Origin: Gammaproteobacteria bacterium
GTDB taxonomy: Bacteria; Pseudomonadota; Gammaproteobacteria; Eutrophobiales; Eutrophobiaceae
Assembly: GCA_963422205.2 (NCBI GenBank)
Contig: CAXMWX010000005.1
Location: 224,001-288,000 of the forward strand
Direction of reading: 5' to 3'
DNA length: 64,000 bases
The position numbers and the translations under genes were made by a program. Positions 31,973 to 60,655 of this stretch are shown here, in pieces (the stretch's first letter is position 1; each line of letters begins with the position of its first letter). Under the pieces are notes generated by a model, which worked only from the letters and a program-made list of their open reading frames with translations, was not told the DNA's origin and did no database searches.

Positions 31973-31993
31973 ATTGGTGCCGATGGCCGGACT
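31973..31993. repeat. island attachment site (distal copy): 21-bp duplication of the tRNA-Leu 3' end
   Basis: ATTGGTGCCGATGGCCGGACT, identical to 60635-60655. Confidence 0.95.
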
Positions 31994-32356
31994 AAGAATT
32001 AGCTTATTAAACAAATATTTATGTAATAAATATCGTAAAATAATCGTAGGTAATGCCTCTTTTGTGACGATTTTAGCACTAATATATATTACTATTATGA
32101 CTATAAATAAAGAATATTATCTTGATTGCGGTACTACACTAAAAAGAGACTAATGATATTGATGATATGTAAGAATAATAGCAGAAGTTCTTTCGGTGCC
32201 AATCGTCCGCTTGATATGATCCAGAGGTTGAATTCAAGGGTAGGGTTCGACAGCTTGAATACACTGTTTGATTAGCCCGTCACCAAATTTTGAGAATGAC
32301 TCGCCTGTTTTCTTTGGGAATCGCCAAAGTCGAAAAGTAGTGAAGGGGTTCACATT

Positions 32357-33733
32357 ATGGTGCTCACAATGGTAAAGCTACAACCATTGCCAATCACTCT
32401 TGCGCTGTTGTGTTATGTTATCCTGCTTGCTTCTGCAAAGGCTTGCGAAGGAGTGTTTTTCGTGGATCCTGAGGGACGGGGTGCTGGTAGCTTTTACATA
32501 GTTAAAAGCCAAGACGGGTCTTGGTCACGGCGAGGTTATCTCCCAGCGGGAAGCCTCGTTCGAAGTAAGGGATTTTCTGGGATCGTTCTTGTGCAGGAGA
32601 AATTGTACCATAAGAGTAAACACTATACTCCATTCGTCTCAGAGTTTGGGCAGGCTGGCTTCATTCGCTGGTCTGACATAAAGCACGGAGCGATCTCCAA
32701 AATCGACGGGGCCCCCATCCAAGGAATGGACAAGCGACTTGATTGTAATGAGATTGAACGCTTTGTCGCTCCGGACAGTTGGAATAAGGGATTTCGAATT
32801 TTAGCCAAGCCAGAGGACGGTTCCAAGGTACTGGATAATCCGAGTGCTTCTTCTATGGCTGCTGTATTTGTGGTTAAAGGTGATTATCAGGAACGAAAGC
32901 CAGGTGGACAGCGTTTCCTGAAGGTTCACTATCGTGTAGGGACACAAGGTCCAGTTGTTATTGGATACGTGGATCGAAGAGAACAAACCAACGAAATCGA
33001 TCCTGGTCGCTTCAGATTAACGCAGCGAGTCGAAGACATCCAAACTGTGAAGGGCGTCTCACGAGATAAAGAATGTAAAGGTACTTGCTGGGGCTCGGTT
33101 CTACAGGATTTCTACCAATCAGTTAAGAACTTTGATTTGGTAGGCAAGACTTTGGCCCAAAAGCCGTGCACTCGGGAAGCCAATGTCGAGTTCATGCTCT
33201 CTGTAGATTCTGGGGCTACGGTGTCACTCGTCGAATGGCTTAACGTTGGCGCTTCCGCAGTCGTCGAAGCATCTCTCAAGTTCACTATCCCAGATGATGA
33301 AGTATTGACCACAGAGCGGTGGTTCCTTGGTGAAAGAACTGAGATTGGTGTGCAACGCACCCATAAATGTGCTGACACAGAAAAAGGGCCTGCTAAATTT
33401 ATCGGTTTGCGTTTTGCTAACTATGAGAACCCTGTCCGGCTCCTCGTAGGTGATCTGGAAAGCGCTTGTTTCTCTCAGTTGCCAGCGTTTCTTCGACACT
33501 ACCACTCGAACGGAATGTTTATCGTCGGACGATCCGATAGAGTTATTTTCCCACGCTATGTTTCCCTGCGCCATCTTATTCAAAATAGGATTGGCAATCT
33601 TATCGACAGTGGCTTTCTTTCGGACAAACAACTCCAAGAACTAGACCGGTTAACTTGGTTGTCTATTGAACAGGTGCTTGAGCATCAACACCCTAAGGCA
33701 TACGGAATACCACCGAATCCTTGCCGTTCTTAA
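32357..33733 (+). CDS. hypothetical exported Cys-containing protein (458 aa)
   Basis: Long uninterrupted ORF, hydrophobic N-terminal signal ending ASAKA, GAAGGGG RBS-like sequence; no family recognised. Confidence 0.75.
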   Translation: MVLTMVKLQPLPITLALLCYVILLASAKACEGVFFVDPEGRGAGSFYIVKSQDGSWSRRGYLPAGSLVRSKGFSGIVLVQEKLYHKSKHYTPFVSEFGQAGFIRWSDIKHGAISKIDGAPIQGMDKRLDCNEIERFVAPDSWNKGFRILAKPEDGSKVLDNPSASSMAAVFVVKGDYQERKPGGQRFLKVHYRVGTQGPVVIGYVDRREQTNEIDPGRFRLTQRVEDIQTVKGVSRDKECKGTCWGSVLQDFYQSVKNFDLVGKTLAQKPCTREANVEFMLSVDSGATVSLVEWLNVGASAVVEASLKFTIPDDEVLTTERWFLGERTEIGVQRTHKCADTEKGPAKFIGLRFANYENPVRLLVGDLESACFSQLPAFLRHYHSNGMFIVGRSDRVIFPRYVSLRHLIQNRIGNLIDSGFLSDKQLQELDRLTWLSIEQVLEHQHPKAYGIPPNPCRS

Positions 33734-33748
33734 TTGTGAAAACGACCT

Positions 33749-34950
33749 TTAAGCAAACAATCTAACGATAAATCGTTCGCCCTGCTCAACTAAGTCAGGG
33801 TTGGTACCGTTGTGTTCTTGCATACCTTTTATGATTTTTCGGGGTATACCCATTCCCATATGCTCTAGGTATCGGTAGTCTCTCATCACGTCCTTCAGTA
33901 TCTGGTTTCGCGCAGCCCGTGTGCCCGTCCGCATCCGCTCCGGGGTTATTCCGTTAGGAAGCCGACCGGGTGAAATGATTTCCAGTCTGTCGTTATAAAT
34001 CGCCAACTCAACATCCGTACTTGTAAGGAGATAATCCCGGTGAATAAGAGCGTTCACAATACCTTCACGGAGTGTGTCTTTTGGATATGTTGTCTGTTCT
34101 ATGCGTCTCCCACCTTCTGCCTTGATAGTATTGCGAGTATTGCGTTGTACAAAATTTAACGCTTGTTCCACCAGTCCATTTTCGACAATATTACCGCTTT
34201 CATTGAGTAGCGGTGCCATAGGCCCATATAACTTTATATGCTCTTGCGCTTTATAGTCTTTGTCAGTCCCTGAATAGGCAACAGCATCTATACCAGCATA
34301 AGGCAGGAATTTATTCAGTGTTTTTCCAAAAAGCAGCATTCCTGAAAGAGTTACACCATATTCGATCATGATCTCTGTGTTGGCGAGAAGCGTCAGCCAC
34401 CCCCCTTCATCGCCATCCTCGGGAACCTCCTGATCTCGGATATGTTGGAAGTAATTCTTAAGGCGGCGATAGTCTAGATTGTTAATTGTAGCACCAGATA
34501 CTGGTTGTAATTCAGCACGTATTGAACCTCGTTGCTGTAGCAAACGCGAAAGTTCTTCTTGGCTCGCTTCCCGGCTCTGTGTGCCTACTCTTATCAGGTA
34601 CTTACTCGTATTGTTATGCCACAAGGCATGCACAGCAGCACCGCGCGATACGCTCACGACTGCAACATCCTTGCCTGATTCCACGTCCTTGATGGTTTCA
34701 AAAAAGGGGATTATGCCTGGTCTGATCTTGTCTCGGCATGCCGTCATTACCCATTATTCAAGGCCTGGTCTGTTAAGTCCCGAAATATTACCGTTATCCT
34801 CTACACCGATAAGTACATGCCGCCCTCTAAATTCGAGAAGGCCCCCAATTCTTTAGCGAAGTCTTGAATCGTCAGGCTGTCTCGTTTGAACTCTACTCCA
34901 GAATTCTCTTCGTTGGCAATAATCTCCAGCAGTTCTGTTCGCGTAGTCAT
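33749..34950 (-). pseudogene. AlbA_2 (Schlafen-like) + HATPase_c_4 protein, frameshifted near the N-terminus
   Basis: MTTRTELLEIIANEENSGVEFKRD from ATG 34950, then a frame change; C-terminal LREGIVNALIHRDY, EIISPGRLP, RN, G.GI. Confidence 0.8.
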
Positions 34951-34953
34951 ACT

Positions 34954-37574
34954 TTAGAATCCGTACTTGGAGTAACGCATCTCGAATGCCGCCTTGCCGC
35001 CCTCAAGAATTTCCTCAACCAGTTCTCGTACTGCCCCAGCGTCTATCGATCCCCTATGTTCATCCGCTATCTTCGCAAAACCCTCTCTAGCTTCCCCGGT
35101 TGCCGCAAGGCCGAGGATCAGTTCTGCATCGCCGAGGACAGGAATATTGGCGTTATGCGTTGAGAAAACGAATTGGCGATGTTGCTTTTCCTGCCGCATG
35201 ATCGGCACTATCCCTTCTGTAATGAAACGGTTATCGAGATCATCCTCTGGCTGATCGACAACGAGCGGTTCTTCGGATTCGAATAAAAGCAGCAACAGGA
35301 CGGCGGTCGCCTTCTGACCAGTGGAGAGAGTCTGTAGTTTTTACCACACCGCTGGTTTACCTTCTGGGGCGGTATTCAGTTCGATTTCTGTTGTCGTTGG
35401 TAGTTCTAGTTCCTCGATTCTCATGTGTAAGTCAAAACTGGCCTGGGCGATTCGCTCCGCTGCACCAGGCGGCAGATTGTAATGCTCTACCAACGACTCC
35501 TTGCCTTCTCTACACCGCTGTGCTAACTCAGCAGGGATAACTGGTCATGTGACCGCAGTCGATCAATCGCTGCTGCAAGATTGCCGCCAACCTCACGCAG
35601 GAGTTGCTCAAGTGGCTTGATGTTTCCGGCCTTTGTTACTTGAATTTGAGTCCTGTTGTAAAGTTTGCGTGATGCTCGCTTTGCTGCAGTCTTGATGTCC
35701 TTATACTCGCTGGCTTTGATGTCTTCCCATTAGAGGTCGTAATTCTTCAATTTGTTGACGAAGCTGGATGAACTCAGCGCCGTCTATCTTTGACTTCTGA
35801 AGTTCTCGCAGGAGCTTCTCATAGGTGTCCTCTATCGCCATGCGGCACTTGTTCCAGTGCGATTTCATCTCCGAGATCGCATGATCGGCGTTGGTCAGTG
35901 CTTCGCTGAATTGATCGCTAACCGTCTTGAGTCGCATACTTAGCGTTTCAAGGATTCTCTCAATTTCCGACAGAATAGCTGCGTTCGGCAGTGCTTCAAG
36001 CGCTTTGTCGGAGACGAATGCCGCATCGATCGGCAAGCACTCCATCAGTGTATTCTGAATCACTCGATACTGCTCCAGTCGTTCCTCAAGACTGAAAAAC
36101 AACTGTTCTTCCCGGATGAGAGGGCTTTTTTCCTTGAGCCGTCCTTCAAGCCCTGCCTCCTGGAAACGCTTTTGTGTCTCCTCAAGACCGGGTAACGCTT
36201 CTATACGCTCTTGCAATTGTTTCATTTCTCGGCACACATCCACGGTCCGTCTTCGCGACCGCTCAAGTTCAAGTCGGATCTTCGATTTTCGGCCAGATAG
36301 CAACGGATCGTTTTCCACAAACCGTTTCAGCAATAAAGTAAGCCTTTCTGGACTCTTTGTCAGTTCGGAAATTTCATGCTGGCCGAATACTTCCACGTCC
36401 GCCATCACATCACGCGGTGAGAGAGGCAACACTTTACTGGTTTCATCCTTCACAATGGGTGGATTAGGCACTGTCCTTTCAATTATGTAGCGGCGCTCGG
36501 ATGGTTTATGGGATTGCACAAGCATTGAAATCTTTGTCCCAGCTTGTAAAACGTACTGGATTATATTATCATGCGCCTTGCGCGCCTCGTCGCCGAGTGG
36601 ATCAAGGCCGAACACATAGCATATACTTTCGATCACTGTCGATTTGCCAGTGCCGCGCCCGCCGATCAATACATTGAGATTCTCGTTAAAGTGGATGGCT
36701 GTATCACGCAAAAAACCACCATCCCAAGTCATTGCCAGTAATTCAGTATGGGACTCGGGTGGTGGATCACTGTGTAGCCGGATACGTGATTCCGGATCAA
36801 GAAACGCCTGCCGGAGTCCCTCAATGGATACCTTCGACATTTTGACATAGCACGACAACGCCTCTTTATCTAAGTCTTTCGGGTCGTTTACATCCGAGGC
36901 ATTTAGAATTGCCGGAATACGATCGCGCCTGTACTGGATATCCTTGTTTTCAAGGATTGACCTGATGTTCTCTGGTACGTTGCTGACTGGGCCGGGCAGA
37001 GTGCACAGGCAAGCAGGTTCGGCGATGTCCAGACATTGATTCTCGATTGTCCGGATAGCTTCTTCAGCAACCCACCGCTGGAGGCCACATGGGCAGCGAT
37101 GCAGGCTGAGCTCCAGTCCTTTGAGCACTCCAAAAGTTCTAGACAGTCAAACTTGCCAGACGGCGATGGTTGATCGTGATTATGAATACCGCAATCGCCG
37201 ATATATCGCTCCAGACTATTATCCTTATCTGGATCGAACAGGCACAGAAAATGCACTCCATCCTTGGTAACAGCTTCAAATCCACTGAAGGCATACAGTC
37301 CAGCTTCGCGCGCTTCACATACAAGATTCATGGAATGATTGACACGGTAGTGATCTGTCACCGCTATGATTTCAATGCCGATTTCTTTACAGGTTTTGAT
37401 TATCGCCTTGTTGTACTCTTCTTCCGATGTAAAAGTCGTTTCTTTGTTATATCTCTCAAGGTACTCAAATGGGTTGATCTGCAAGGCGCAACGGTAAAAT
37501 CGCGCACCATTTGAAAATTTTAATGCGTTTTGTAGGCATTCCGAACGCACCTGACTTGTGGCACCCAATATCAT
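34954..37574 (-). pseudogene. PHP domain + SMC-like ABC ATPase (TrlF/Ppl-like), split by several frameshifts and stops
   Basis: IAVTDHY, GVHFLCLF and IAAHV (PHP); GGRGTGKST Walker A; LSTGQK signature; LVVDQPEDDLD Walker B; STHNAN; spread over ORFs 36903-37574, 35701-37128 and 34954-35295. Confidence 0.85.
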
Positions 37575-37657: not shown

Positions 37658-38974
37658 TCACCGCCCCTCCAACGTCCTCGCCGTCCATACCACTGCACCA
37701 ATCACCACCATATCATCTGCCCAGCTCATAGACTCCCAGGTCGGATGGTCACTGATGAGCTGCCATTTGCTGCTCTCCTTATTCAAGCGCCTAACGACCA
37801 GGCCATCGTCAGTGCGGATGACATAAATGCGCTTTGACCGGCGCCGAGTACGGGCGCGGTCTACCAGTATCTTCGTTCCATCTGTCAGTGTCGGCTCCAT
37901 CGACTCACCAGATACCCCAATCACGGCGCATTGGGTTGGGTCAAGTGCATGCTCATCTAACCAGTCGCGGCAAAACCATAGTCGGCCTGAGATCTCCTCG
38001 GACAATGCCTCCATCCCACCACCTGCGGCACAAGCTAACTCAATCACGTCCACTGGCCGAGTGCTGGATGACACCCCAGTGTTCTTCTCATTTGCCACCC
38101 CATCGGTTAGTAAGACATCACGTAAATCATTCGGGATCGGGTCGCCACCGATGGCATGTACTGCACGCACCAGATTTTGAGTGCTGGCTTCGAACTCATC
38201 GCGGTGGTCAGCTACAAGCGGCCTCGGCACTGCCTGCTGCCACTCATAAGCCCTGGGGTCGGGTACTAGCAAGGCCGTTAAGCCCACTGCCGGCTTATCC
38301 CGAAACACCCCCACCACGGCACCCTGGCGGGCGATAAAACTTCGATTGACCTGCTCACCCACACTGCTGGTCTGGCCACTATGCGGCTTTCCCCAGCCGC
38401 GCAGTGTCAGGTGCGTGGCAGTAAAACCCAGTAATCGTTTGATGCGCTTGGAACCATATTCATCCTCCATCCACGGCCTCTGCCCAACCGCCAGCGGGGT
38501 GTTGGGTGATACGACACAGTAATCATCAGGCGAGATTCCTTCGGGGATCATGGATGATCCCTTGGCAATCGCATAGAAGGCATCTGGGTCGCCCGTTAAG
38601 CCCTGTGGCTCCGGCAGGTCGTTCTCAACCTGTTCAACATGTTTGCGGTGCTTCTGTGAATCCAGACCACAAGCGGCATGACCATCGACTGGTAAGTCGA
38701 CATCGACAAATGTTAGCGGAGTAGTGCCTGTGGTGCAGATGGCAGGCGATTCGGCTACCTGATCACCAGCCTTTCCACGGGGCGGGCCGATGTAAAACTC
38801 AAGGTCAAGAGCACGGCAGATTTCGGCCAGCCTATCGGATTTTGTGGCACGTTTTTCTAACACATAGCGAATCGCGTTGCCTGGCATCCCAGCATTGAGG
38901 GAAGCACGATATGGGGTCACTCCTCTGCGTTCTAATTCTTGGCGAACAACAGTCGTAATTTCCTCTGCTTCCAT
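37658..38974 (-). CDS. CI/LexA-like repressor: N-terminal HTH plus two S24 peptidase domains
   Basis: HTH (LAEICRALDL); domain 1 AKGSSMIP...IKRL; domain 2 VSGESMEPTL..G..ILVD...VVRRL...LISD...VIG.VVW. Confidence 0.88.
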   Translation of the reverse strand: MEAEEITTVVRQELERRGVTPYRASLNAGMPGNAIRYVLEKRATKSDRLAEICRALDLEFYIGPPRGKAGDQVAESPAICTTGTTPLTFVDVDLPVDGHAACGLDSQKHRKHVEQVENDLPEPQGLTGDPDAFYAIAKGSSMIPEGISPDDYCVVSPNTPLAVGQRPWMEDEYGSKRIKRLLGFTATHLTLRGWGKPHSGQTSSVGEQVNRSFIARQGAVVGVFRDKPAVGLTALLVPDPRAYEWQQAVPRPLVADHRDEFEASTQNLVRAVHAIGGDPIPNDLRDVLLTDGVANEKNTGVSSSTRPVDVIELACAAGGGMEALSEEISGRLWFCRDWLDEHALDPTQCAVIGVSGESMEPTLTDGTKILVDRARTRRRSKRIYVIRTDDGLVVRRLNKESSKWQLISDHPTWESMSWADDMVVIGAVVWTARTLEGR

Positions 38975-38990
38975 TAGCTATATATAGCTA
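38975..38990. promoter_or_regulatory. perfect 16-bp palindrome filling the cI/cro gap (candidate operator)
   Basis: TAGCTATATATAGCTA is self-complementary and sits between the divergent ATGs at 38974 and 38990. Confidence 0.6.
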
Positions 38991-39244
38991 TGGATAGCAA
39001 AATTATTCTCCAACTCGCCAAAATCTATGCTCAGGTAACAGGGCTTTCCTTGTCAACGGTATCAAATTACATGGCCGGATCAGGTGATTTTTTCGATCGC
39101 CTTGAGCGTGGTTGCGATGTTACTACCCGCCGTGCCGCCCGAGTTGTGCAACGTCTCAGCGATCACTGACCGCCCAACACACCTTGGCCTGTCGATATCC
39201 CCCGCCCTGCGCCAGATGCAACGGCGGTGAAGGAGGCAGCGTAA
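38990..39244 (+). pseudogene. Cro-like small regulator with a premature TGA at 39167
   Basis: MDSKIILQLAKIYAQVTGLSLSTVSNYMAGSGDFFDRLERGCDVTTRRAARVVQRLSDH*PPNTPWPVDIPRP...EAA; divergent from cI. Confidence 0.75.
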
Positions 39245-39582: not shown

Positions 39583-39822
39583 CTACAACAATTTTCCCAG
39601 CATGGCCACCACGCCGATACCGATGACCATCAAAGAGCCCAAACGCAGGGTTAAATCGTGTTTCAGACGGAGTTCCAGCATTTTCAGGTCTTCCTTGGTA
39701 GCCAGGCGCTCATCAATCAAGCGTGCTTGGGACTCAGCCAGTGCTTCCGCCTGCTGTTCGGTAAAACCAGCTTCTTTTAGGGTTTTGGCGTACGCCAGAC
39801 TATCAAAGGCCAATGCGCCCAT
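39583..39822 (-). CDS. DUF1640-like small coiled-coil membrane protein
   Basis: AFDSLAYAKTLKEAGFTEQQAEA...LATKEDL...C-terminal TM helix. Confidence 0.85.
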   Translation of the reverse strand: MGALAFDSLAYAKTLKEAGFTEQQAEALAESQARLIDERLATKEDLKMLELRLKHDLTLRLGSLMVIGIGVVAMLGKLL

Positions 39823-39858: not shown

Positions 39859-40126
39859 TACCACAGGCTTGACAACGGCTAAAGCCAGGGCTAGGCCTCA
39901 TCGTACATCAACAAAATCTGATGTCGGGATTCGCATCCTGTTGCACAGAGCGTCCAAGGCGCTCAACCGAAGCGCTTTTTTTGTGTCTGCAATTTATGGC
40001 AGGCTGTTCAGGAGCACTTCGGTGCGCCGTCCTCTGTGCGGTAATGCGAATCCTGTACAGCCTGCCACCCGCTTAATTGACCTTAATGGTGGCAGTTCTC
40101 AAACCAACACAGAGGACACTGCCATG
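39859..40126 (+). repeat. C4/ash-type immunity cassette, copy 1 (TTGACA promoter, target sites, terminator-like hairpin, antisense RNA)
   Basis: Near-identical to 40406-40667 except at the specificity segments; TTGACA at 39869; GCGCT..AGCGC-T7 hairpin at ~39958-39983. Confidence 0.85.
39996..40068 (+). ncRNA. C4-type antisense RNA, copy 1
   Basis: TGGCAGGCTGT/ACAGCCTGCCA closing stem, GCAC-TTCG-GTGC hairpin, CCG-loop-CGG hairpin; both loops are complementary to flanking sites, as in P1 C4 / P4 CI RNA. Confidence 0.8.
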
Positions 40127-40193
40127 ATTGATGGCCGGCCTTGCCGCCGTGCGGGTTTTTTATGGGCATGGGCCTACTGCTGGCAAGCTAGGG

Positions 40194-40394
40194 TTAAGAG
40201 AAGGCTTTAAGGTATGGGAGAATTTCAACCACAATCACCAGCCCAATCATCCATTTTATGATGAGCAAATCCCGTTCAATTTTATTAAATCGATTCTCGT
40301 AAGAGGAAATTGCCTCGGCGGCTTTCCTCGCTTTCTCATCACTTGCGCCAGCATCAATCAGCGCATCGTAAACTTCTTTAATCATCGTTGCCAT
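40194..40394 (-). CDS. small coiled-coil membrane protein (DUF1640-like architecture)
   Basis: MATMIKEVYDALIDAGASDEKARKAAEAI...LLIIKWMIGLVIVV. Confidence 0.8.
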   Translation of the reverse strand: MATMIKEVYDALIDAGASDEKARKAAEAISSYENRFNKIERDLLIIKWMIGLVIVVEILPYLKAFS

Positions 40395-40405
40395 GCCGGG
40401 CAGTC

Positions 40406-40667
40406 TACCACAGGCTTGAAAACGGCTAAAGCCAAGGCTTCATCGTACATCAGCAAAATCTGATGTCGGGATTAGCACCCCGTGTTCACGAGCGCCAAGG
40501 CGCTCATCCGAAGCGCTTTTTTTGTGTCTGCAATTTATGGCAGGCTGTTCAGGAGCACTTCGGTGCGCCGTCCTCTGTGCGGTAAGGTCAATCCTGTTCG
40601 GCCTGCCGCCCTTAATTTGGAACTTAATGGTGGCAGTTCTTTCACCTTGACAAAGGAGGCCACCATG
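40406..40667 (+). repeat. C4/ash-type immunity cassette, copy 2
   Basis: Direct repeat of 39859-40126 with -35 TTGAAA, a short deletion around the -10, and different target sites. Confidence 0.85.
40537..40609 (+). ncRNA. C4-type antisense RNA, copy 2
   Basis: Same fold as copy 1; loop a identical (GTCCTCTGTG), loop b different (TAAGGTCAAT). Confidence 0.8.
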
Positions 40668-42692: not shown

Positions 42693-42736
42693 TTCTGACA
42701 TGATGGCATTAATCTGGGTTGTCAGGTGGAGGTGTG

Positions 42737-48470: not shown

Positions 48471-48532
48471 AATAGTGATATGCCTGCCTCCACGGAGGCA
48501 GAGCGAGCCTACCCAGAGAGCTGCCTGTAGTC

Positions 48533-51333: not shown

Positions 51334-51411
51334 AGTTTAATGATAAAGGCATGGGGCAGACTACCCTTAACCTGCGAAACCTGTAATAGCGCTGACATGA
51401 GTGACCATTGA

Positions 51412-52713
51412 GTGATGATTGAAGAGAAGTCCCTGGATGAATTGCTTTCGGGGTTTTTAGAACAGTCCTCAGATGAGATAAAAGGATTGATTTATACCAC
51501 TACTCAAGATGCCCGCCCAAAACATATTGGCAGGTTTAAATATGACAATGAGACAGACACGCTTAGTCTTTCCATCTCAGAGAGCGGGTTTATTGTTAAT
51601 ATAAAGGGCATGCCGCTAGGTGATACTCCTGATGAGTATCAATATGAATTGATCAATCCGTCTCCTTTTCAGTTGGAGTCGTTGTTCAATGTACCATCGG
51701 GTTACCTGGCACAAGTGCTTGCCAAAAGATATCCTGAAGAATTAACACCCAATGCCAAACAATGGACTTCTCAGGAAATATTAAAAGCGATGTTGTTTGC
51801 TGGCAATGACTTGTCAGGTGGCGTGATGTTTTTTGAAAATGAACGGGAAATGCAAAACGCGTTTAATCAACCCTTTGATAAAGAGGCGTCGTATCACATT
51901 GGCGAGGGTGAACTCAACCGGATTAAAGTCATACAGATGCAATATCAGAACCTGTCGGCATCAAGGAAAAGTAATCTTGGCGGGGCTAAACCGAAATTCC
52001 TGGCCAGTAGAATTCATGCAGATGGCACGTATGATAACGTAATGATTAAGTACAGCACGCCGGATGATCCATTATTTGATGAGGTATCCAGGCAGTTAGT
52101 ATTGGAACATGCCTGTCTTAAGGCATTACGTTTAAATGGTATCAGCGCAGTTGACGCAAGATTGATAAGGGACGATGTAACGGGGCAGGTTTTTTTCGAG
52201 TCTGTAAGAGCTGTTCGAAGTCTACGCAATAGTCCCGATCAGCACCCGGCTGTTAATCATTGGATATCGGCGCAGGCATGGCATACCACAAGAGGTGGTG
52301 TCTCCAGCGACCCCGTATATATTATTGTCAGGCAATTACACGCAAACAGGCGAAGTAATGCTACAACGAATGACGATGGAGAACTGGACTATCGTCCACA
52401 AGACACACAGGCGATTCATGATTTTATCACTCTGGCGGCATTTAATTATTTGGTTGGGAACTCGGATTTGCATGGTGGTAATCTGTCCTTGCAGCATCAG
52501 GGGATTGATAAAAATGGCGAGGTTATCATCGGCCATTCCCCAGCCTATGATATAGAGCCATATATGCTGAGAATCAATGAACCCGTGCCTAAATGGGCTA
52601 AAAACAAAAATATGAAAGACATTCAGCCCTCCGATCTCCCACATGGGGCATTACTTTTCAATAAGAACCCGGCAGACTTTGAACGGGCAAAAAAATACGG
52701 GGTGATATGCTGA
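51412..52713 (+). CDS. HipA-family (YjjJ-like) kinase; extreme C-terminus probably frameshifted
   Basis: PSGYL, LGGAKPKF, IKYS, LEH..L, FNYLVGNSDLHGGNLS, SPAYD. Confidence 0.85.
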   Translation: MMIEEKSLDELLSGFLEQSSDEIKGLIYTTTQDARPKHIGRFKYDNETDTLSLSISESGFIVNIKGMPLGDTPDEYQYELINPSPFQLESLFNVPSGYLAQVLAKRYPEELTPNAKQWTSQEILKAMLFAGNDLSGGVMFFENEREMQNAFNQPFDKEASYHIGEGELNRIKVIQMQYQNLSASRKSNLGGAKPKFLASRIHADGTYDNVMIKYSTPDDPLFDEVSRQLVLEHACLKALRLNGISAVDARLIRDDVTGQVFFESVRAVRSLRNSPDQHPAVNHWISAQAWHTTRGGVSSDPVYIIVRQLHANRRSNATTNDDGELDYRPQDTQAIHDFITLAAFNYLVGNSDLHGGNLSLQHQGIDKNGEVIIGHSPAYDIEPYMLRINEPVPKWAKNKNMKDIQPSDLPHGALLFNKNPADFERAKKYGVIC

Positions 52714-52997
52714 ATATTGTGAAAGAACTGGCAAGCGACCACTACCTGGGGCATCAGGATATGCAGAAGATAAATCAATTTTTTTCAGGATGCGGTAACG
52801 CGCCAGCATTATCGCGAGAAGCCGAGGCATTACACGGCATGGAAATGTAACACTGGCATTCATGCCTCTGGTGAGGGAGCCAGGCTACGGAGTAAAGACG
52901 GTTGAAGCCACATTGAGGGCTGGGCATGTGATAAACAACTTATACGCCTTCTGTTACCCCCGCATAACATCTGAAACTGTTGAGATGAAGGCAAATC

Positions 52998-53615
52998 TCA
53001 CATCCCCGGCCCGGTTTCCGGCTCAAGGGTTGGCTTGGGAGATGGGTTATCCGGCCACAGCGCACTGAGCGGGAAAGTAATCGCATCGAACGGCGGGACT
53101 GAGACTGACGCATCGCCAGCGAGCGAGGCGTTCAAAACCCAATGTTCATCTTTGAGTTGGAAGGCTTCCAGGGTGCGGGCATCAGGATCGACAAACCACA
53201 GATAGTCTACCCCCTCACGGGCATAGATGTCGCGCTTGTCGGTCAAATCGAGCTGGCGGGTGGATGGCGATAACACCTCGCAAACCCAGTCCGGGGCAAG
53301 TTCAAAGAAGGCGGCATTTGGGAGGCTGGGCATAGTCTCGCGTCGCCAACCGGCCAAGTCCGGCACCAGAATGTCCTCGCCCAGGTGCAGCTCCGGCTCA
53401 TCAATAATCCACCAGCCTCCCGGGCCGCCATCACCATATCCAAAGGGCGGTGAAATTTTAGCGCCTATCCCGGAACTCGCCCAGGCATGAGGTATAGCGG
53501 GGCGGGGCTGCATCCTAAGCACGCCATAGATGACTTCTGCCACCTTGTGAGGCGGCGCATCCAGCACATCCTGGTAGGTGGCCTTAGCCTGGGTTTTGCG
53601 TGCGGAGGTAATCAT
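52998..53615 (-). CDS. Uma2 (DUF820) family endonuclease
   Basis: ATY.D...P, EPEL.L...LVPDLAGWR, APDWVCEVLSPST..D...K..YA..GV..LW.VDP. Confidence 0.93.
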   Translation of the reverse strand: MITSARKTQAKATYQDVLDAPPHKVAEVIYGVLRMQPRPAIPHAWASSGIGAKISPPFGYGDGGPGGWWIIDEPELHLGEDILVPDLAGWRRETMPSLPNAAFFELAPDWVCEVLSPSTRQLDLTDKRDIYAREGVDYLWFVDPDARTLEAFQLKDEHWVLNASLAGDASVSVPPFDAITFPLSALWPDNPSPKPTLEPETGPGM

Positions 53616-53757
53616 CTAAATCAGTTTAGCATAGCATATCGGCATTTGTAGCGTTCCTCATAAAGCCAGTAAAACGGGTTTGAAACTGGCTTTTATTACA
53701 AGTAACATTTTGTTTGCTTTATCTTTTACTTGGATTGCTGGAAATGGCACAGATAAC

Positions 53758-54151
53758 ATGAAGTTGATTGAAAACGTCATATCCGAGCGCATGATTGATG
53801 AATAGATTGACTACGGGTTTGGATGAGGCTGGCTTTACTGCATCACTTGATGATGATTTTCCGCAACACCTGACACGGGATGATGAGCAAAAGCTGCTGG
53901 ATTTATGTGCTTCACGTTCCTTGGAGATAAGGTCTTGGGCGAAGATGGGCTCACCTTGCTTTATGGCGGGGGTGGCCGTGATGCTCGCTAGTGTTGCTGG
54001 GTTCGACCGCTGTAGTTTGTTGGCCTTGGCAGAGCGGCTCTATCCCGGGGCCAGCCAACCGGCAACATTTGCTCGCTGGTTAAAACATAGCCCGCTTCAA
54101 CCTTCGCGCTTCCTGGCGATGTTGGATAGAGAACTTGCCCATGCGCCCTGA
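53758..54151 (+). pseudogene. hypothetical protein (partner of the nucleotidyltransferase), broken at the N-terminus
   Basis: ATG 53758 hits an early TAG; the body continues in ORF 53795-54151, overlapping the next gene. Confidence 0.5.
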
Positions 54152-54413
54152 AGCCAAAGCACAAATGGAATATGTCGTTGCTTTCAGGGAAATCGCTGGG
54201 CGTATTGCCAAATCATTCAGCGGGGTAGCGGAGCAGGTATTGCCCATCAAAATGTATGTCGCTGGCGGGGCTGCGCTGCATTTTTATACCGGTGAACGTA
54301 TATCCAGGGATATTGATGCCAGCTTCTCGCACCGGATAATCCTGCCGGATGATCTGGAAGTCAGCTATCGTGCTGCCGATGGTGCCGCCCGTTTGTTGTA
54401 TTTCGACCGCTAG
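54141..54413 (+). pseudogene. DUF6036-like nucleotidyltransferase, truncated
   Basis: MYVAGGAA..FY...R.S.DID motif; TAG after LLYFDR and the rest is missing. Confidence 0.75.
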
Positions 54414-54432
54414 TATAAGGATAATACATTGA

Positions 54433-55326
54433 TTATCCCCACTGCATTGCTGTTCGAAGTGGGGTTTTAATCGACAGGAGCAACCGATGATGATCTGTGC
54501 GCCGTAAAGGAATGGATAATGCTGTGCTATGAAGAGAGTCCGCAAGGTGTTTTAGAATACGTGATAGCGGTGATAAATTTCTTGTTGTTTTTAATATTTG
54601 AACCATGCCTTTATGCACATCAAGGGCATTTAATTTAATGAATTTCTCTCTTAATGCGGCATACATCTCAGTGTTTGGGACATCAGGAACAGGGATATTC
54701 ATCAATTTTAGAATTCTTATCGCTTCATTCATACGGAGAGAATCGTATATGACTGCCGGAGAGATTCTGTCTGGTCGCTCCGATGCTGCCCTCAATGTGG
54801 AAATTTGATGCCTTGCTGACAGTTTGAGTATGCCAACATCTTCGGACACAATAGAGCGTACGCTGCCCTCATGATTTTCCCCTGCAATAACGCAAACATT
54901 AGCAAAAAATTGCTTGTAAGTTTCAATTTGTTGTTCAAGACGGGAAAGTGAGTCCCGTTCAGATTTGATCTCATAAGCTGTCGCTGTTCCATTGATGATT
55001 GCCAAATCTACTTTACACTCACCCACACGAAACTCATTGAGCATTGTAGCTGTTTGCAGCGAATGCCTTCCAAGAAGTACGCGCTGCGTCAGTGCAGCTT
55101 TATAAACATACTCATGGCGGCATTCGGTTCTCTTCAAAACATCAAAGGCGGCACCAAAGAAATGAAACACATTCTGCTTCAGGTCATCAGGCTTAAAGAC
55201 ACCCAGTGCTTCCTTGGCCAGTCGTGCAAATAGTGGTGATTTACCACGACCGGTCAATTCTCTCATCACGCTTGAAGAGAATAGGCGGGATATAGCTGAT
55301 ATTTGATTTGGTGAGAGCATATTCAA
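54433..55326 (-). CDS. sce7726-family protein (PD-(D/E)xK-like)
   Basis: EYVYK, LLG.HSL.TA.ML.EFRVG..K.DL..ING...YEIKSERDSL.RL..Q..Y. Confidence 0.85.
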   Translation of the reverse strand: MNMLSPNQISAISRLFSSSVMRELTGRGKSPLFARLAKEALGVFKPDDLKQNVFHFFGAAFDVLKRTECRHEYVYKAALTQRVLLGRHSLQTATMLNEFRVGECKVDLAIINGTATAYEIKSERDSLSRLEQQIETYKQFFANVCVIAGENHEGSVRSIVSEDVGILKLSARHQISTLRAASERPDRISPAVIYDSLRMNEAIRILKLMNIPVPDVPNTEMYAALREKFIKLNALDVHKGMVQILKTTRNLSPLSRILKHLADSLHSTALSIPLRRTDHHRLLLSIKTPLRTAMQWG

Positions 55327-55474
55327 CTACATCCTGTTTTCTTCACGGCATCTTAATGGAATTTTTTTGCCAGATAAACTAAAATCGGTTGAATTGAAAT
55401 CCTGATCTGCTAAAAATAAACTGCTGACTGGCAAAGCTGCAATGGATTAGTCGATCTCGGTGTGCTACAGGCCA

Positions 55475-55996
55475 TTATAACTTATTCTTAGCCACACGTT
55501 TCTCAACCCCATGCCGGGTTCTGACCTCGATCTCCTGTTCCATGAAGGCCATGAGCTTATCCAAAATCACCTTTCGCTCGGCCTTGTTTTTGCCCTGCTT
55601 GAGCGCCTGCTGCACCACGTAAGCCCAGCGATACACCGTGGGATACGGGGTCTTGAACTGGGCAAACCATTCAGTCACTTGCGGGTAGGAGCGCCCTAAC
55701 AGCCGCACCAGATCATACTTGCCGAAGGTCTTGTCCACGTGCCTGTGAATATACGCCAGCAACTCGGTGGGGTGCGGGAAGCGGGGCAGAAAATACGCCT
55801 CTGGATGTTCGTACAGGTACCGTGTCAGGGCGCTGGTCGCCAAGTCCTTGATGGCATTTTTATCATTGGCAGGGGCAATCATGTTCGGGATATTCAAGCC
55901 CAGCAGGAAGACAAGATCGCGCTGCCGCAGATCTTCTATATCGGCCAGGGCACGGGCATGACCGTAAGTGACCGGCTTATCAGATTCAGGTTTCAT
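55475..55996 (-). CDS. hypothetical protein, possibly HTH DNA-binding
   Basis: Intact ORF, ATG 55996 with GAGAGA RBS; DLVRLLGRSYPQVTEWF resembles an HTH. Confidence 0.6.
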   Translation of the reverse strand: MKPESDKPVTYGHARALADIEDLRQRDLVFLLGLNIPNMIAPANDKNAIKDLATSALTRYLYEHPEAYFLPRFPHPTELLAYIHRHVDKTFGKYDLVRLLGRSYPQVTEWFAQFKTPYPTVYRWAYVVQQALKQGKNKAERKVILDKLMAFMEQEIEVRTRHGVEKRVAKNKL

Positions 55997-56087
55997 TATC
56001 TCTCTCGTTGTGTATTTAGTATCTGGTATGATTATATACACTATGTGATATAATGCTACTGCATAGACATCACGTACAAGCCAAACC

Positions 56088-56660
56088 ATGTCCATCTCCA
56101 CCCTAAGCGGCTATTATAGCTACCGCCATCGTGTCCCGGCCAGGGTCAAGTTGAAATCCATCATCACCTCGCCCGCCCCGCCACGGAGCGGGATTACCCT
56201 GGGCTGTCTTGAAACCCAGCGTGCCCTGATCAGCCGGGTCTATCGGCGTGAGCAGGCAAAAGGCCGGCAGCTTGTTCGTATTGAGGTCAAACTGGAATTG
56301 GGCGAGATGCAGAACCTGGCACGTCCTGACCTGTCGGATTTGCCCCACCTGACCCTGCTGCATTTGGCCTTTATCAAAAAACGCCTGCGGGAGTCTATTG
56401 CGGATTACCTGATCGCCTATCAGCGAGGAGGCCGAGGCAAGCAGGTCTATGCCGACCCCAGAGAGGCGGTCAAATACCAGCCGGGCTTGTTGGATAAACT
56501 GCTACGGGAGCCCGCCTTCTCTCATGTCCGCATGGTGATCTGGCAGCCTGAATCTGTGGAGGGCGATATGCCCGGGCCTATCCAGGTGGCCACGCTGTTC
56601 AATACCCGCCATATCGTCAGCGCCACGGCCGTGAATAGGAAAACGAAGGTGGTGTATTGA
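56088..56660 (+). CDS. hypothetical protein
   Basis: Intact 190-aa ORF divergent from the 55996 gene; TATAAT in the gap. Confidence 0.65.
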   Translation: MSISTLSGYYSYRHRVPARVKLKSIITSPAPPRSGITLGCLETQRALISRVYRREQAKGRQLVRIEVKLELGEMQNLARPDLSDLPHLTLLHLAFIKKRLRESIADYLIAYQRGGRGKQVYADPREAVKYQPGLLDKLLREPAFSHVRMVIWQPESVEGDMPGPIQVATLFNTRHIVSATAVNRKTKVVY

Positions 56661-56796
56661 GCTGGTTTCTGAACTGGGACCGCTTCCGAGCACCAAAGCT
56701 ACCACAGCCCCGACAAGGGCAGCGCTGAGGGCAATCAGGTAGGACGTATGTACAAGTTCAAAAACCTATTGCCCTATTCGTAAGAGAGAGAACGAG

Positions 56797-57764
56797 AGCA
56801 CTATCAGCATATAGGGTATCGAATAAAAGGCTTTTATCGCACGGGCAGCCATGCAATAAGGGCGGACATGAATAATCAAATCGCCGCACAGCGTCCCTGC
56901 TTGCGTGCTGCGTGCAGGCAAGTCAGTGTGCTTAGATTCTGGGACAAGCATGGCCTGACCCGCCCTTGACCACAGTGGCAGTGGTTCGACAAGCTCACCC
57001 ACCAGAGCCGCCGTACCCTGTATGCCTGGCGCAAAGCCTACCGCGAGTGGGGACTGTCTGGCTTGTGTCCGACCCCCAAAGCACCGAAGCGCACTCGCCG
57101 CTGACCACAAGCGGTTATCCAGCAGATACGCCAACGGCGCCAAGACCTGCCCAATCTGGATAAAGAGCAGTGTCAGGTACTGCTCAGATCCTGGTGTCAG
57201 GCCAGGGGATTGCCCTGTCCCAGTACTTCGACCATTGGCCGCCCTGTCTGTGCGGGTACGCAGACGGGCTGATTGCCGATACCCCCGACAAGAGGCGAAT
57301 CTCACCCCCGGCCTTGAGCCCGAAGGGGAAAGCCAAAGCCTATCGAAGAACCCCCGTCACACGCCGCCCTAAAGGCTATCGCCCCAGCCAGATTGGCGAG
57401 TGTGTGGGACTGGACGCCATCGAGCGGCGTAGGCAGGTGGCCGGGGGGTATCTCCTCACCTCTATTGACGAAGCCAGTGGCTATGCCTTAGTCCTGGCGG
57501 TGCCGAAACGGAACAGCCGGGCAGCCAGAGACTTCTCTGAAAAGGCCCTCTCCCTGACCCCCTTCCCCATCCAGCAGGTGATTACCGACAGTGGCGTTAC
57601 GTTCAAGGGCGCGTTTGACCAACGGCTCAATGATAGTCAGATCCTGCATCTATACACCTATCCCAAAACCCCCAAAATGAATGCCGTGGCTGGTGAGCTT
57701 GTCGAACCATCTGTGAGCGTTCTAATCGCACCATGGTTGGTGAGCCTGTCGAACCCTATCCAGT
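56797..57764 (+). mobile_element. IS481-like transposase pseudogene
   Basis: FWDKHGL, SRRTLYAWRK (HTH); GECVGLD, TSIDEAS, ITDSG..F, YTYPKTPKMNA..CERF.NRT (DDE core); several frameshifts. Confidence 0.8.
56982..57755. repeat. three REP-like GGTGAGCYTGTCGAACC units (56982-56999 minus; 57692-57709 and 57739-57755 plus)
   Basis: First two copies are a perfect 18-bp inverted match; the third has 1 mismatch. Confidence 0.85.
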
Positions 57765-57873
57765 ACAACAAAAAGGGCAATAGGGGGTGGACTTATACAG
57801 ACTATACGCCAACAGATTTTGATCTATACTATTGTAGAGGCATATCACCTTTTGTAAATTGAAGAGGCATACA

Positions 57874-58642
57874 ATGAGAAGCTGGAATAGGTTATATTTA
57901 ACTCTGATTTTGCTGTTTTCACTGCCTGCACATGCAGACAAGGACATCTCTGGTTCTTTCAGCACGGCTAAAAGGTGGGCCGAGAAACACATCTACCACG
58001 ATAAACGACTCTCATTTTATTGTGGCTGTTCCTACACCGCAAATAAGGATGTTGACCAAACCTCTTGTGGATACACTCCAAGGAAGCCGTTTACCAGTAC
58101 TGGTAAGGAAAATACCAGAGATAACCGTATAGAATGGGAGCATGTTTTGCCAGCATCGCTAATGGGTAATCACTTAGCCTGCTGGGGAGCCGACAGAGGT
58201 AAATTCTCTCAATGTGTTAAATCCGACGGTAAACTTTACTCAGGTCGGAAATGTTGCCAGAGAGTGAATGACGTATTCAGAAAAGCGCATAATGATTTGG
58301 TGAATCTAGTGCCTGCGATTGGCGAGGTCAATGGTGACCGTTTCAATCACCGCTATGGAATAGTCCCTGGCGAGCCCCGCAAATATGGTCAGTGTGATTT
58401 TGAGTTCGAAGATAATGTCGCTGAGCCAGCGGCGAGTATCCGAGGAGATATAGCCAGGATGCAGATCTATATGTTGGAGACTTACGGGCCTGAGCTAGGG
58501 TTTTACGTTTGAGTCTGGACGGCTCCAAATGCTTAAAGAATGGGCTAAAAGTGATCCAGTGTCGGAGTGGGAAATAAAATGAAACCAACGGATATGTGAC
58601 AAACAGGGCACTGCGAATAACCAAATCAGTCAATGTAACTAA
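57874..58642 (+). pseudogene. endonuclease I (EndA/Dns family), frameshift near 58505 and TGA at 58580
   Basis: Signal peptide, SFS.AK, FYCGC, RIEWEHV.PAS, DL.NL.PAIGEVNGDR.N, RGDIAR, DPVS.WE. Confidence 0.88.
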
Positions 58643-58737
58643 GCAGGAGGAGACAGAGATTTGTGCCATTTGACTAGCTTGCGGGCGGTATGGGCAGGTT
58701 TAGCGCGCATTGATGTCTACGGGCTAATCAAATAAAT

Positions 58738-59076
58738 CTAACCAAATGTTGCCTCGATTTCTGAACGATAAAGAGAGAGAAAGCTATCTTCTTGAACCTT
58801 ACCAAATATTAACCATTCAATCATGTCATCCATAATCGACATGGCATCTTCGCTTAAATAATATTCTGTCATTGAATAAGAATTATAATGTGCGCCTATA
58901 GGCCGGATATGATCAAACCGAAGTATGGACTCATCTACGCCTGTCACAGGCAGTTTATCCCAGAAAAATTGTGGATACTCACAGTGACGGATAGCCTCCA
59001 CAAACTTGGGATTGTATCCAGCCCGACGGTTATTGTGTTCGGCACCATAGTAGGGCCGGCAATATCCTATAACCAC
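58738..59076 (-). pseudogene. probable C-terminal fragment of the partner (putative toxin) of the upstream Panacea-like gene
   Basis: Overlaps the upstream stop; PYYG...R, YPQFFWD.LP, ESILRFDHI.P; looks N-terminally shortened. Confidence 0.4.
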
Positions 59077-59775
59077 TTCACGCCTTCAACAAACATCTCA
59101 TCATCATAGATCTTCTTTCGTACAGGATTGGTACGTCTTGGTTTTCCTCCGCTTTGTTGCCTTTGCTGTCGGTATTGATTACCCAAACTACGCATTTTTT
59201 CAGCCAGGCGTTTTTTCTTTTTGTTTGAGAGCTGTTCATATTTAGTTAGTAGCGGCTCTTCTTGTATTTGTTCCGCTGGCATAGCTAAAGTAAAATTCAA
59301 GGGCTGCCGGGTGGGCAGAAAGCATGGGTGGAGTCCTATAGACATGATCTAAAAGAGATGGTGCGTCTTTGCCAAATTGATGTACACAGTGCCTAATAGC
59401 AGATGAAACCACTAAGGGAAGTTGGTACTCAATCTCTTCGAGTTTTCTTTCGTCCCTTAACCTCCAACGATACCATTCCCCCTCCTCTTCATATTCGCTT
59501 TCGAGGGTGTTCTTGGTCGCATTTATGTGTATAAGCGCAGGTTCAATTCTGTTATGTACTTCTACCGACCAAGGGCCAAATGTGTGAAACTTCCATGGCG
59601 TTCCCGTATAGGTTTGCCCCTGGTTTCCTTCAGCATGAGCCAAATCTGCCAGATAAACATATTTTAATAAATGGATAGGTCCGAGTTCTCCATCATGGTA
59701 GTCATCCTCTTCTCCAGCCATCAACAAGGCACACTGGATAAGTAAATCCACTTTCTGCAGATCAATTTGCATCAT
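59067..59775 (-). pseudogene. Panacea/SocA-like (DUF4065) protein, frameshifted near 59300
   Basis: LGPIHLLKYVYLADL.H......TG..W.F..FGP.S..V; L...VY.T.PM; continues in ORF 59067-59345. Confidence 0.65.
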
Positions 59776-59836
59776 AAGAATTGTATCAGGTCAAGTTGGC
59801 AAAGATTAGCATATTTGCTATGTCGTCCCGCAACCA

Positions 59837-60634
59837 TCACCCCAGCCGTTCAGCGATCTCGGTCGGCGTCGGATTATAATAAATCATCAACGAGCGAGGG
59901 TCACGATGCCCCACCATCTTGGCCAAGTCCAGAACATCCAGCTTCCTTGCTAACCGGGTCAAGGCTTCATGCCGGCTGTCATGGAAGGTCAGATTCTCAA
60001 TACCCGCCAACCTGACCGCTTTGCGAAAATAAATGGCACCGCTTTCCTGGGGTACAGAGAACACATTGCCCGATTTTTTAGGTTCCATTGCCTGCAGTAA
60101 TGCTATCGCCGTGCTGGATAAGGGGACATGACGACTGCTGCCGTTCTTGGTGTCATGCAGGGTAAGGTAGCGGCCAGCAAAATCAATATCCGACCAGTCC
60201 AATCCCCATATCTCGCCTTGACGCATGGCTGTCTCCAGGGCAAGCAAAAACGCATAACCGGTCTGCTTTCGGGCTGTCAGGCCGCCATCCTCATCAAAAT
60301 ATAACGCCTGTAGTAGCTTGTCGATCTCAACCTTGGATATGCGCCGCTCCTTGGGCGGCGTAGCCTTCGGGCGCTTGCATTCCTTACAGGGATTGACCTT
60401 ACATCCATTTCCACTTGACACAGTGGGTGAAAATGGAAGACAAGAGATTCAAGTCACGGTTGATTGTGCTGGCCGAAGTCGTTTGTTCAGCAATCCATCG
60501 GTCAATATCCGCCGTGGTCAACTGCTCCAACATGACATCAGCCAAGGGGTCACGCCGGTGTTTGTTGATGCGTATCCTGTCCCAGCGCTCGCCTTTCCTG
60601 TCACTGGACACGCCAGCTTCATAGCGGTATAGCC
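59837..60634 (-). pseudogene. tyrosine integrase, N-terminally deleted and frameshifted at ~60401
   Basis: LETAMRQGEI, TKNG..R.VPLS, FHDSRHEA, GHRD....YY; the upstream part (STINRDLNLLS..F...WKW) is in another frame. Confidence 0.92.
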
Positions 60635-60655
60635 ATTGGTGCCGATGGCCGGACT
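60635..60655. repeat. island attachment site (tRNA-proximal copy)
   Basis: Identical to 31973-31993; overlaps the tRNA 3' end. Confidence 0.95.

Follow-up and report, generated by a model that had tools for sequence, protein, structure and literature searches.

A decayed 28.7-kb island in tRNA-Leu(GAG) that may descend from one integrative element with an SXT-like early module and type IVB transfer genes

SXT/R391-family integrative and conjugative elements (ICEs) usually integrate at prfC. Their SetR and CroS regulators form a lambda-like switch, as set out in the parts of PMC4542580 and PMC8460599 that concern these two proteins, where no function is stated for the Rep-like and DUF6475 genes of these elements. 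ICEs with a transfer apparatus of mating-pair formation class I (MPF-I), the IncI/Dot-Icm type, are described as extremely rare and were absent from the data of Cury et al. (2017; PMC5587801), whose sections on replication report theta-replication proteins in 16 ICEs (15 of class MPF-T and one of MPF-G) and describe replication systems as few or absent among ICEs of the F and G types. A type IVB system is also known from Pseudomonas putida IsoF, where kib, according to the part of PMC9519443 that describes it, is a bacteria-killing system encoded on an integrase-bearing genomic island of 67 kb. The present analysis concerns 64,000 nucleotides (the window) of a gammaproteobacterium of the family Eutrophobiaceae, positions 224,001 to 288,000 of contig CAXMWX010000005.1 in GenBank assembly GCA_963422205.2; its genome is denoted G000, and other G and L numbers denote further genomes and loci that were examined. 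The window contains a 28.7-kb island at a tRNA-Leu(GAG) gene, which is best explained, with a probability of roughly 0.55, as the decayed remnant of one ICE-like integrative element of MPF-I type with an SXT-like early module. This single-element reading is based on the early layout of the SXT/R391 member R997, on loci elsewhere that are linked to type IV secretion systems (T4SS), on the distribution of the Rep partner, and on relics in sister genera.

The island is bounded by a perfect 21-bp direct repeat, ATTGGTGCCGATGGCCGGACT, whose right copy forms the 3' end of tRNA-Leu(GAG), adjacent to secG (coordinates of all features are collected in Table 1). The tRNA-Leu(GAG)-secG pair is kept in relatives, with a flank match in 19 of 21 genomes, and the guanine-plus-cytosine (GC) content is 0.43-0.55 within the island against 0.56-0.61 in its flanks. 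Because of the repeat, the tRNA end, the lowered GC and the conserved flank, the island and its boundaries stand, and it is a real remnant of a mobile element. It has one att pair, one integrase (phage_integrase domain, E 2.9e-24) in a gene split by a frameshift, and lowered GC throughout, at 0.47-0.53 across the early block and the icm block. At least eight genes (rep, icmL, icmK, icmB, the coupling-protein gene, a small open reading frame (ORF), the integrase gene and a Ppl defence gene) are broken by frameshift, truncation or stop, a degree of decay well beyond that described in the original prediction, and the element is now inert, the island itself being dead. Pfam scans of 38 island ORFs and PHROGs scans of 20, with several short ORFs lying outside both sets, gave no terminase, capsid, portal, tail, lysis or antiterminator family. 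The original prediction, made from the letters of the window, had described a relic of one att-bounded element devoid of terminase, capsid, tail and lysis genes, and these claims are borne out.

In R997 (NZ_KY433363.1), setR, the gene of a LexA/cI-like repressor, faces croS, and a gene for a 289-amino-acid (aa) Rep-like protein, a DUF6475 gene, a transglycosylase gene, setD, setC, eexS and tra genes follow in that order. The island has the same arrangement, namely an S24 cI-like repressor gene facing an early operon that opens with a small helix-turn-helix (HTH) gene, then Rep-like and DUF6475 genes, then regulators and transfer genes; like SXT/R391 it is integrated, carries defence and toxin-antitoxin cargo and has no virion genes. 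The N-terminus of the R997 289-aa protein is 38% identical to aa 32-152 of the window Rep (E 5e-24), and the two DUF6475 proteins are 38.6% identical. Of the predicted cI/cro switch, the repressor is present with its S24 homology, whereas the place of cro is taken by a 59-aa ORF that is a candidate by position and size alone.

The rep gene of the island is a pseudogene whose two domains, N (42813-43256) and C (43615-43974), are read in different frames, the break falling between about 43545 and 43615; its N-terminal part matches phrog_1701, a DnaD-like loader. In relatives, a single ORF of 314-378 aa (one of 590) holds both domains. The window has 27 matches to GATACCCTATC (with at most 2 mismatches), a number not reached in any of 100 shuffles, and 15 of them fall in 42737-43522; three clusters of iterons with 12-bp spacing lie inside rep, in 42737-43541. 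The iterons claimed for an O-like initiator are clear, and the gene that bears them is frameshifted. For the neighbouring DUF6475 protein, a fold was predicted with a pLDDT of 87.7. Its two best matches in the PDB are both phage helicase loaders, namely DnaB-bound lambda P (Foldseek E 0.027, probability 0.85; VIA Z 7.9 over 147 residues, root-mean-square deviation (rmsd) 10.2) and the N-domain of SPP1 G39P (65 residues at rmsd 2.4, Z 7.0); Z values of 7-8 are, however, in the range that the tool warns can be common among helical proteins. These middling scores support a loader-like protein, as had been predicted, without proving it. Sequence searches of the PDB with Rep, the Rep C-domain and DUF6475 gave no meaningful chain match, a full-text literature search found no paper on DUF6475, and the titles of literature on ICEs with iterons and replication initiators turned up nothing pointing to the Rep/DUF6475 pair.

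The pair is nevertheless found elsewhere. In a sample of 400 genomes of the class, DUF6475 occurred in 24 genomes, with 42 matches outside G000, of which the 19 best-scoring on long contigs were examined. In 11 of these 19 loci, DUF6475 is followed on its own strand, no more than about 15 kb downstream, by type IV secretion genes. These comprise an MPF-G-like set of DUF2895, DUF3438, TraC_F_IV and TraU in L054, L065, L066 and L070 (assigned by Pfam for L065 and by clustering and tblastn for the others), homologues of R997 TraB, TraC, TraU, TraH and TraG in L068 and L069, and a VirB11-like ATPase with VirB4 (PF03135), 6-15 kb downstream, in L053, L055, L057, L059 and L067. Three of the 11 also have a MobH-type (TraI_2) relaxase-like gene 17.5 kb downstream. 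Some of the other eight loci may be prophages, since one of them, L061, shows a weak tape-measure-like match. Homologues of the window Rep stand upstream of DUF6475 in all 19 class loci (with the C-domain in 16) and in R997 (N-domain), at E <= 1e-3, and were found in none of 22 phage or viral DUF6475 records (20 IMG/VR contigs, phage Bcep176 and phage-plasmid p2463-1); this comparison is unbalanced, the viral contigs having been retrieved by likeness to the window DUF6475 and the class loci by the Pfam model, and most IMG/VR contigs having been checked with a small tblastn panel only. Iteron-like tandem repeats occur mid-gene in the Rep of the ICE-type loci L065, L068, L055 and L054; in contrast to the strong in-gene iterons of the window rep, none are evident in the R997 gene. 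The premise that O/P replicons serve phages and not ICEs thus fails for Rep/DUF6475, given R997 and the 11 loci.

Tentatively, and with the odds somewhat against it, it is proposed that Rep with its in-gene iterons and DUF6475 make up a working theta-type replicon in the early, repressor-controlled operons of many proteobacterial ICEs, of classes F (including SXT/R391), G, T and, through this relic, I. If so, once induced, those ICEs would copy themselves in the manner of a lambdoid phage without depending on the relaxase, and the island would be the first sign that the replicon group has an MPF-I member. Such a replicon would bear on how ICEs, clinically important ones included, are maintained after excision. 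Being dead, the island itself is ordinary genome debris; the O/P-like iteron replicon seems to be common in ICEs and is the more interesting of the two.

Type IVB genes continue from the early genes on the same strand, and homologues of the four predicted, icmL, icmK, icmB and icmO, were found, all of them broken. No second IcmL exists elsewhere in the G000 genome. At about 47998, icmK is joined at aa 221 to icmB at aa 234, and the icmB homology, a 156-aa fragment 47% identical to a 1,020-aa ORF of genome G029, stops near 48465, immediately ahead of the leader of the coupling protein; the icm block has undergone two internal deletions. One assignment had to be changed, as the ORF at 48533-49150, previously taken for icmB, encodes the coupling protein's N-terminal part and is ended by an in-frame TAG, and the icmB fragment lies in the ORF at 48013-48576. 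ORFs 48533-49150 and 49217-50791 together form one gene, whose two parts match TrbC family NF041447 (N part, E 1.2e-28; C part, E 8.9e-62; neither reaches the curated cut-off) and whose TraG-D_C match has an E of 2.4e-9. Its nearest plasmid relatives are 40-43% identical, and 3,339 of 3,907 matching records are on plasmids typed as conjugative. Between G000 and the sister-genus genome G028, where the coupling-protein gene has a different TAG stop, dN/dS is 0.107/1.06, and the protein was therefore under selection until recently. The in-frame TAGs were also considered as read-through or an alternative code, which was rejected because G028 has a sense codon (CAA) at the G000 stop (49148-49150) and vice versa.

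The remaining core components (DotB, DotC, DotD, DotG, DotM and others) were not found among the ORFs scanned with Pfam and NCBIfam, and tblastn with the ORFs of the G029 cluster returned IcmL, IcmK and IcmB only. Three relaxase families (PF03432, PF07514 and PF08751), the only ones searched, had no match in the G000 genome. Without a relaxase the conjugative role of the island is unproven, although the gene may have been in a deleted stretch; with core genes broken as well, the island cannot be filed as a functional ICE.

Relics in sister genera tie these blocks together. G028 has an integrase gene whose orientation is reversed with respect to the window, a Fic gene and a cI remnant (67 aa from the C-terminus) about 250 bp upstream of the coupling-protein gene, which is followed by the 145-aa ORF, HipA and Uma2, at 74-83% DNA identity; a 91-aa ORF upstream of the coupling-protein gene shows no similarity to DotM of a Pseudomonas megaplasmid. 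In G015, the same tRNA-Leu(GAG)-secG site holds a frameshifted integrase (69-81% identical in aa), SocA-like (77%), Vsr-like (66%) and Uma2 (82%) genes and a cI remnant (44% over 80 aa), with a remnant of the icmB N-terminus (aa 11-68) at a distance of 1.8 kb; the stretch that contains them has no long ORF. A second G015 locus, at tRNA-Leu(CAG), has a 797-aa IcmB-like ORF that is 71% identical to the window fragment and matches TIGR02746 weakly (E 5.7e-8). This locus (L009, G015:C1:1510000-1529999, at 13545-19023) also contains a 130-aa ORF matching the N-terminal part of the G029 IcmB, a 392-aa AAA_22 ATPase and an N-terminal integrase remnant. The genome G029 has an intact icmL-icmK-icmB set, its IcmL being 55% identical to that of the window. 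None of the three relaxase families occurs in G028, G015 or G029. Since repressor, integrase, cargo and type IVB genes recur together across three genera, they share a history, and the relics fit one element family that is now dead in each genus. Three decayed copies in three genera imply that an element of MPF-I class once spread in this bacterial family.

From the anatomy, lesions and homologies seen in the DNA, a course of induction, replication and transfer may be proposed. The cI/SetR-like S24 repressor would have held the rightward early operon off until induction, probably through RecA-stimulated self-cleavage of the repressor, switched it on. The operon would then have expressed an AlpA-type factor for excision or activation, an O-like initiator binding the iterons inside its own gene, DUF6475 as a lambda-P-like helicase loader, a C5 methyltransferase methylating the element together with small regulators, and an IncI/Dot-Icm-type (MPF-I) type IV apparatus whose coupling protein is of the TrbC/DotL type. 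By replicating as an excised circle, the element would persist in the cell during transfer. Point mutations and the two internal deletions have broken rep, icmL, icmK, icmB, the coupling-protein gene and the integrase gene, and no relaxase remains. The idea of a hybrid that replicates like a phage and transfers by a type IVB system, put forward in the original prediction, is supported in part, by its layout, switch, O-like initiator, loader-like gene and absence of virion genes; it proves less exotic than supposed, given the SXT/R391 precedent, and is without a relaxase.

The chief alternative is that two elements were fused. A type IVB island would have shared its tRNA-Leu with a prophage or satellite, lying within it or next to it, that contributed cI, cro, C4/isrK, AlpA, rep, DUF6475 and the methyltransferase; deletions would have taken the late or packaging genes, one integrase and att site and some of the transfer genes, and the same-strand junction, somewhere in 45800-46650, would be due to chance. 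Several observations lean this way and weigh against a single element. In the tree, the window DUF6475 groups with phage and IMG/VR rows and with R997 (SH-aLRT 96 for the clade); a terminase lies 3.4 kb downstream in L042, the row nearest to it, and DUF6475 homologues lie beside O or primosomal genes in 36 phage records. The mixture of these rows with R997 means that the module moves between phages and ICEs. Against fusion, the Rep type of the window accompanies the T4SS-linked DUF6475 genes and none of the 22 phage or viral records, and the order switch, Rep, DUF6475 ahead of transfer genes recurs in SXT/R391 and the 11 loci. In favour of fusion, neither C4 nor isrK RNAs were found when 7 ICE-type loci were searched, and the icm block bears the marks of at least two large deletions (icmK aa 221/icmB aa 234 and icmB aa 389/coupling-protein leader), so junction-forming deletions did happen in the island; against their having fused two elements stand the single att pair, the single integrase and the similar GC of both blocks. 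The junction is unique in everything searched, and among 126 genomes of the family DUF6475 exceeds its cut-off in G000 alone and IcmL occurs in two, G000 and G029, the icm cluster of the latter resembling its host in GC and having in its neighbourhood neither mobile-element genes nor homologues of rep, cI, the integrase or the coupling protein. The stretch from cI to the type IV genes is deleted in G028 and G015, which cannot decide the rep question because rep would have lain there; their cI remnants nonetheless travel with the coupling protein (G028) or icmB (G015). Fusion by deletion, already named as the alternative in the original prediction, is weakened rather than refuted by the att pair, R997, the 11 loci and the relics, and is unlikely.

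A second locus joining Rep/DUF6475 to icm genes was found in none of the metagenome, viral, genome-collection and family searches; the co-occurrence proposed earlier as a check is seen with other T4SS classes, in R997 and the 11 loci, but not with icm. The coupling-protein part (524 aa) had no relatives in metagenome or viral contigs by exact-word scans, the 190-aa ORF and IcmL had none in viral contigs, and a two-sequence IcmL alignment had no match in metagenomes. A DUF6475 scan of the genome collection gave only three loci, 41-42% identical, and none of them has an icm gene within 10 kb; one of these genomes, G127, has three IcmL paralogues on a different contig stretch from DUF6475. G307, with icm and Rep/DUF6475 within 20 kb, was considered as a second case and rejected, as a tRNA-Pro and a GC drop separate its resident icm genes from an island with VirB11 and VirB4. 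This island (Rep/DUF6475, VirB11-like, VirB4) starts at the tRNA-Pro (L053 6611-6687; G307:C2, about 51.6 kb), 6 kb beyond the resident icmB. IcmL was present in 16 of the 23 other DUF6475 genomes against 91 of 399 overall, an association inflated by kinship. Up to five DUF6475 copies occur per genome (G175, G310), and the icm clusters there look resident, outside the DUF6475 islands.

On the separate question of function, the type IVB genes may never have been conjugative and may have served effector delivery or bacterial killing as in kib, the island having moved, if at all, by other means; by analogy with that integrase-bearing island, and with the relaxase families absent from all four genomes, the chromosomal look of the relaxase-free G029 cluster and IcmL common in the class (92 of 400 genomes, mostly in resident systems), this can be argued, but it is improbable given that the best family of the coupling protein is the IncI-plasmid TrbC, that its nearest plasmid relatives are mostly on plasmids typed as conjugative, that the Rep/DUF6475 early module stands beside conjugative gene sets elsewhere, and that a relaxase may lie in the deleted stretch and was sought in three families.

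Table 1. Features of the island and its boundaries, in window coordinates (E, E-value)
Feature	Position	Strand	Basis or remark
attL, left copy of the 21-bp repeat	31973-31993		100% identical to 60635-60655
Left cargo: 458-aa protein without assignment (+), 332-aa HATPase_c_4 protein (-), split Ppl-like defence gene (-)	32357-37574
Ppl-like defence gene, split	AAA part 35701-37128; PHP part 36903-37574	-	PADLOC Ppl E 7.9e-13; Pfam PHP E 0.0014, below cut-off
cI/SetR-like repressor, 438 aa, N-terminal HTH-like region (by eye), two Peptidase_S24 stretches	37658-38974	-	PF00717 E 1.8e-22; phrog_4 and phrog_6201, CI-like
59-aa ORF divergent from cI, Cro-like candidate	38990-39169	+	Position and size only
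Two tandem isrK-like and C4 antisense RNA units	39905-40613 (39905-39982 / 39992-40072; 40447-40523 / 40533-40613)	+	C4 scores 63.7 bits (39992-40072) and 56.6 bits (40533-40613)
AlpA/excisionase-like HTH protein, 95 aa, weak match	42405-42692	+	HTH_17 E 0.0068; phrog_4996 E 2.2e-12; phrog_66 excisionase E 5.9e-6
rep initiator pseudogene	42726-43986	+	N-domain in frame of 42726, C-domain in frame of 43471-43986
DUF6475 protein, 199 aa, candidate lambda-P/G39P-like helicase loader	43973-44572	+	PF20081 E 3.6e-24; phrog_10105 E 2e-58; predicted fold
124-aa protein (phrog_4786)	44569-44943	+	PHROGs
C5 cytosine methyltransferase, 235 aa	45093-45800	+	Overlapped in +1 frame by ORF 45268-45771
Small Cys-rich ORF	45790-46062	+	In-frame TAG 45877-45879
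190-aa protein with internal two-fold repeat	46059-46631	+	No family match in Pfam, NCBIfam or PHROGs
icmL/dotI pseudogene	46648-47296	+	Frameshift near 47125 and one TAA, full-length coverage; PF11393 E 5.9e-31, 107.8 bits (cut-off 27.7); NF038072 E 1.4e-39
icmK/dotH fragments (47304-47534 and 47612-48019)	47304-48019	+	C-terminal ~80 aa missing, larger piece ~aa 94-221 of 301; PF12293 E 9.1e-15, 54.8 bits (cut-off 25)
icmB/dotO-like VirB4-family ATPase fragment	47998-48465	+	aa 234-389 of ~1020; ORF 48013-48576
TrbC/DotL(IcmO)-type coupling protein	48533-50791	+	In-frame TAG 49148-49150
Right cargo, with 145-aa ORF	50896-59775		Region of island
HipA-like kinase, right cargo	51412-52713
Uma2/PDC-S03, right cargo	52998-53615	-
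sce7726 family, right cargo	54433-55326	-
rve fragment, right cargo	57170-57862
Endonuclease I, right cargo	57859-58512
Vsr-like, right cargo	59067-59345	-
SocA-like, right cargo	59242-59775	-
Tyrosine integrase, frameshift-split (59837-60421 and 60399-60611)	59837-60611	-	Domain and ORFs
attR (60635-60655) within tRNA-Leu(GAG) (60637-60721)	60635-60721	-	Repeat and tRNA call

Among the genes between the replication module and icmL, the C5 methyltransferase was recovered as predicted; the stop/start overlap placed at 45093 involves a 48-aa ORF and not the 124-aa gene. By eye, the methyltransferase ORF shows motifs I, IV, VI, VIII and X and almost no target-recognition region, and the product of the +1-frame ORF (167 aa) ends in a motif-IX-like 'LNPQWVEWLMGYPIGWTD'. 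The same two-frame arrangement occurs in the viral contig L034 (2700-3700), where, for the same DNA, the alternative frame is 58% identical to that of the window over 50 aa (E 1e-14) against 47% over 60 aa for the main frame. Overprinting, a methyltransferase of two subunits or a gene shifted twice could account for it. All three independent inactivating stops known from the element family, in the window coupling protein, the small ORF and the G028 coupling protein, are TAG. It is possible that these stops arose by C-to-T change at cytosines methylated by the C5 methyltransferase of the element.

C4 and isrK RNAs are hallmarks of phage immunity regions. Both predicted C4 RNAs are present, and with the two isrK-like RNAs they lie inside a 541-bp tandem duplication (repeat spacing 541-547). 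In or just beside each copy there is a small opposite-strand ORF (39583-39822 and 40194-40394, both on the minus strand; 79 and 66 aa), each with a hydrophobic segment at its C-terminus. The repressor, at 438 aa, is unusually long, and each of its S24-like stretches appears, by eye, to have its own Ser-containing motif. The AlpA/Xis gene of the original prediction is also present, although its match is weak.

In comparison with known systems, the early region is lambdoid in its divergent repressor and small ORF, its in-gene iterons in the initiator, a next gene whose predicted fold best matches the P and G39P loaders, and its methyltransferase, and differs from a lambdoid prophage in having no virion, lysis or antiterminator families in the ORFs scanned and a Rep type seen in 0 of the 22 phage or viral records. 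Phage satellites of the phage-inducible chromosomal island (PICI) or P4-like kind carry, besides an integrase and AlpA, a module for replication and genes for packaging or for the redirection of capsids. The adjacency of the AlpA-like gene and rep in the island resembles such satellites, in which AlpA stands directly upstream of rep. The kib island, likened here by description only, shares with it a type IVB cluster, an integrase and GC lower than the host; it differs in being intact and bacteria-killing, and a cI/rep module is unmentioned in the part of PMC9519443 that describes it.

With IncI/Dot-Icm (MPF-I) systems the island shares IcmL/DotI, IcmK/DotH, a VirB4-like IcmB fragment and a TrbC/DotL-type coupling protein, and its icmL-icmK-...-icmB order is that of G029. 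It differs in retaining four of many components, all broken, and in being integrated behind a phage-type switch and replicon, whereas the IncI type is plasmid-borne. The transfer genes of SXT/R391 are F-type and those of the island type IVB (IcmL, IcmK, IcmB-like, TrbC/DotL-like); unlike SXT/R391, the island has no SetCD (FlhC/FlhD) or F-type Tra family among the ORFs scanned, and MobH relaxase (TraI_2) has no match in the G000 genome. Its att site is in tRNA-Leu and that of SXT/R391 elsewhere, C4/isrK RNAs are present in it and absent from the R997 stretch searched, and its copy is dead, in contrast to SXT/R391. Lacking SetCD, F-type tra genes and a MobH relaxase, and with a different att site, the island fails membership of that family. 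SXT/R391 is the nearest known system by layout and the IncI/Dot-Icm class the nearest by transfer genes.

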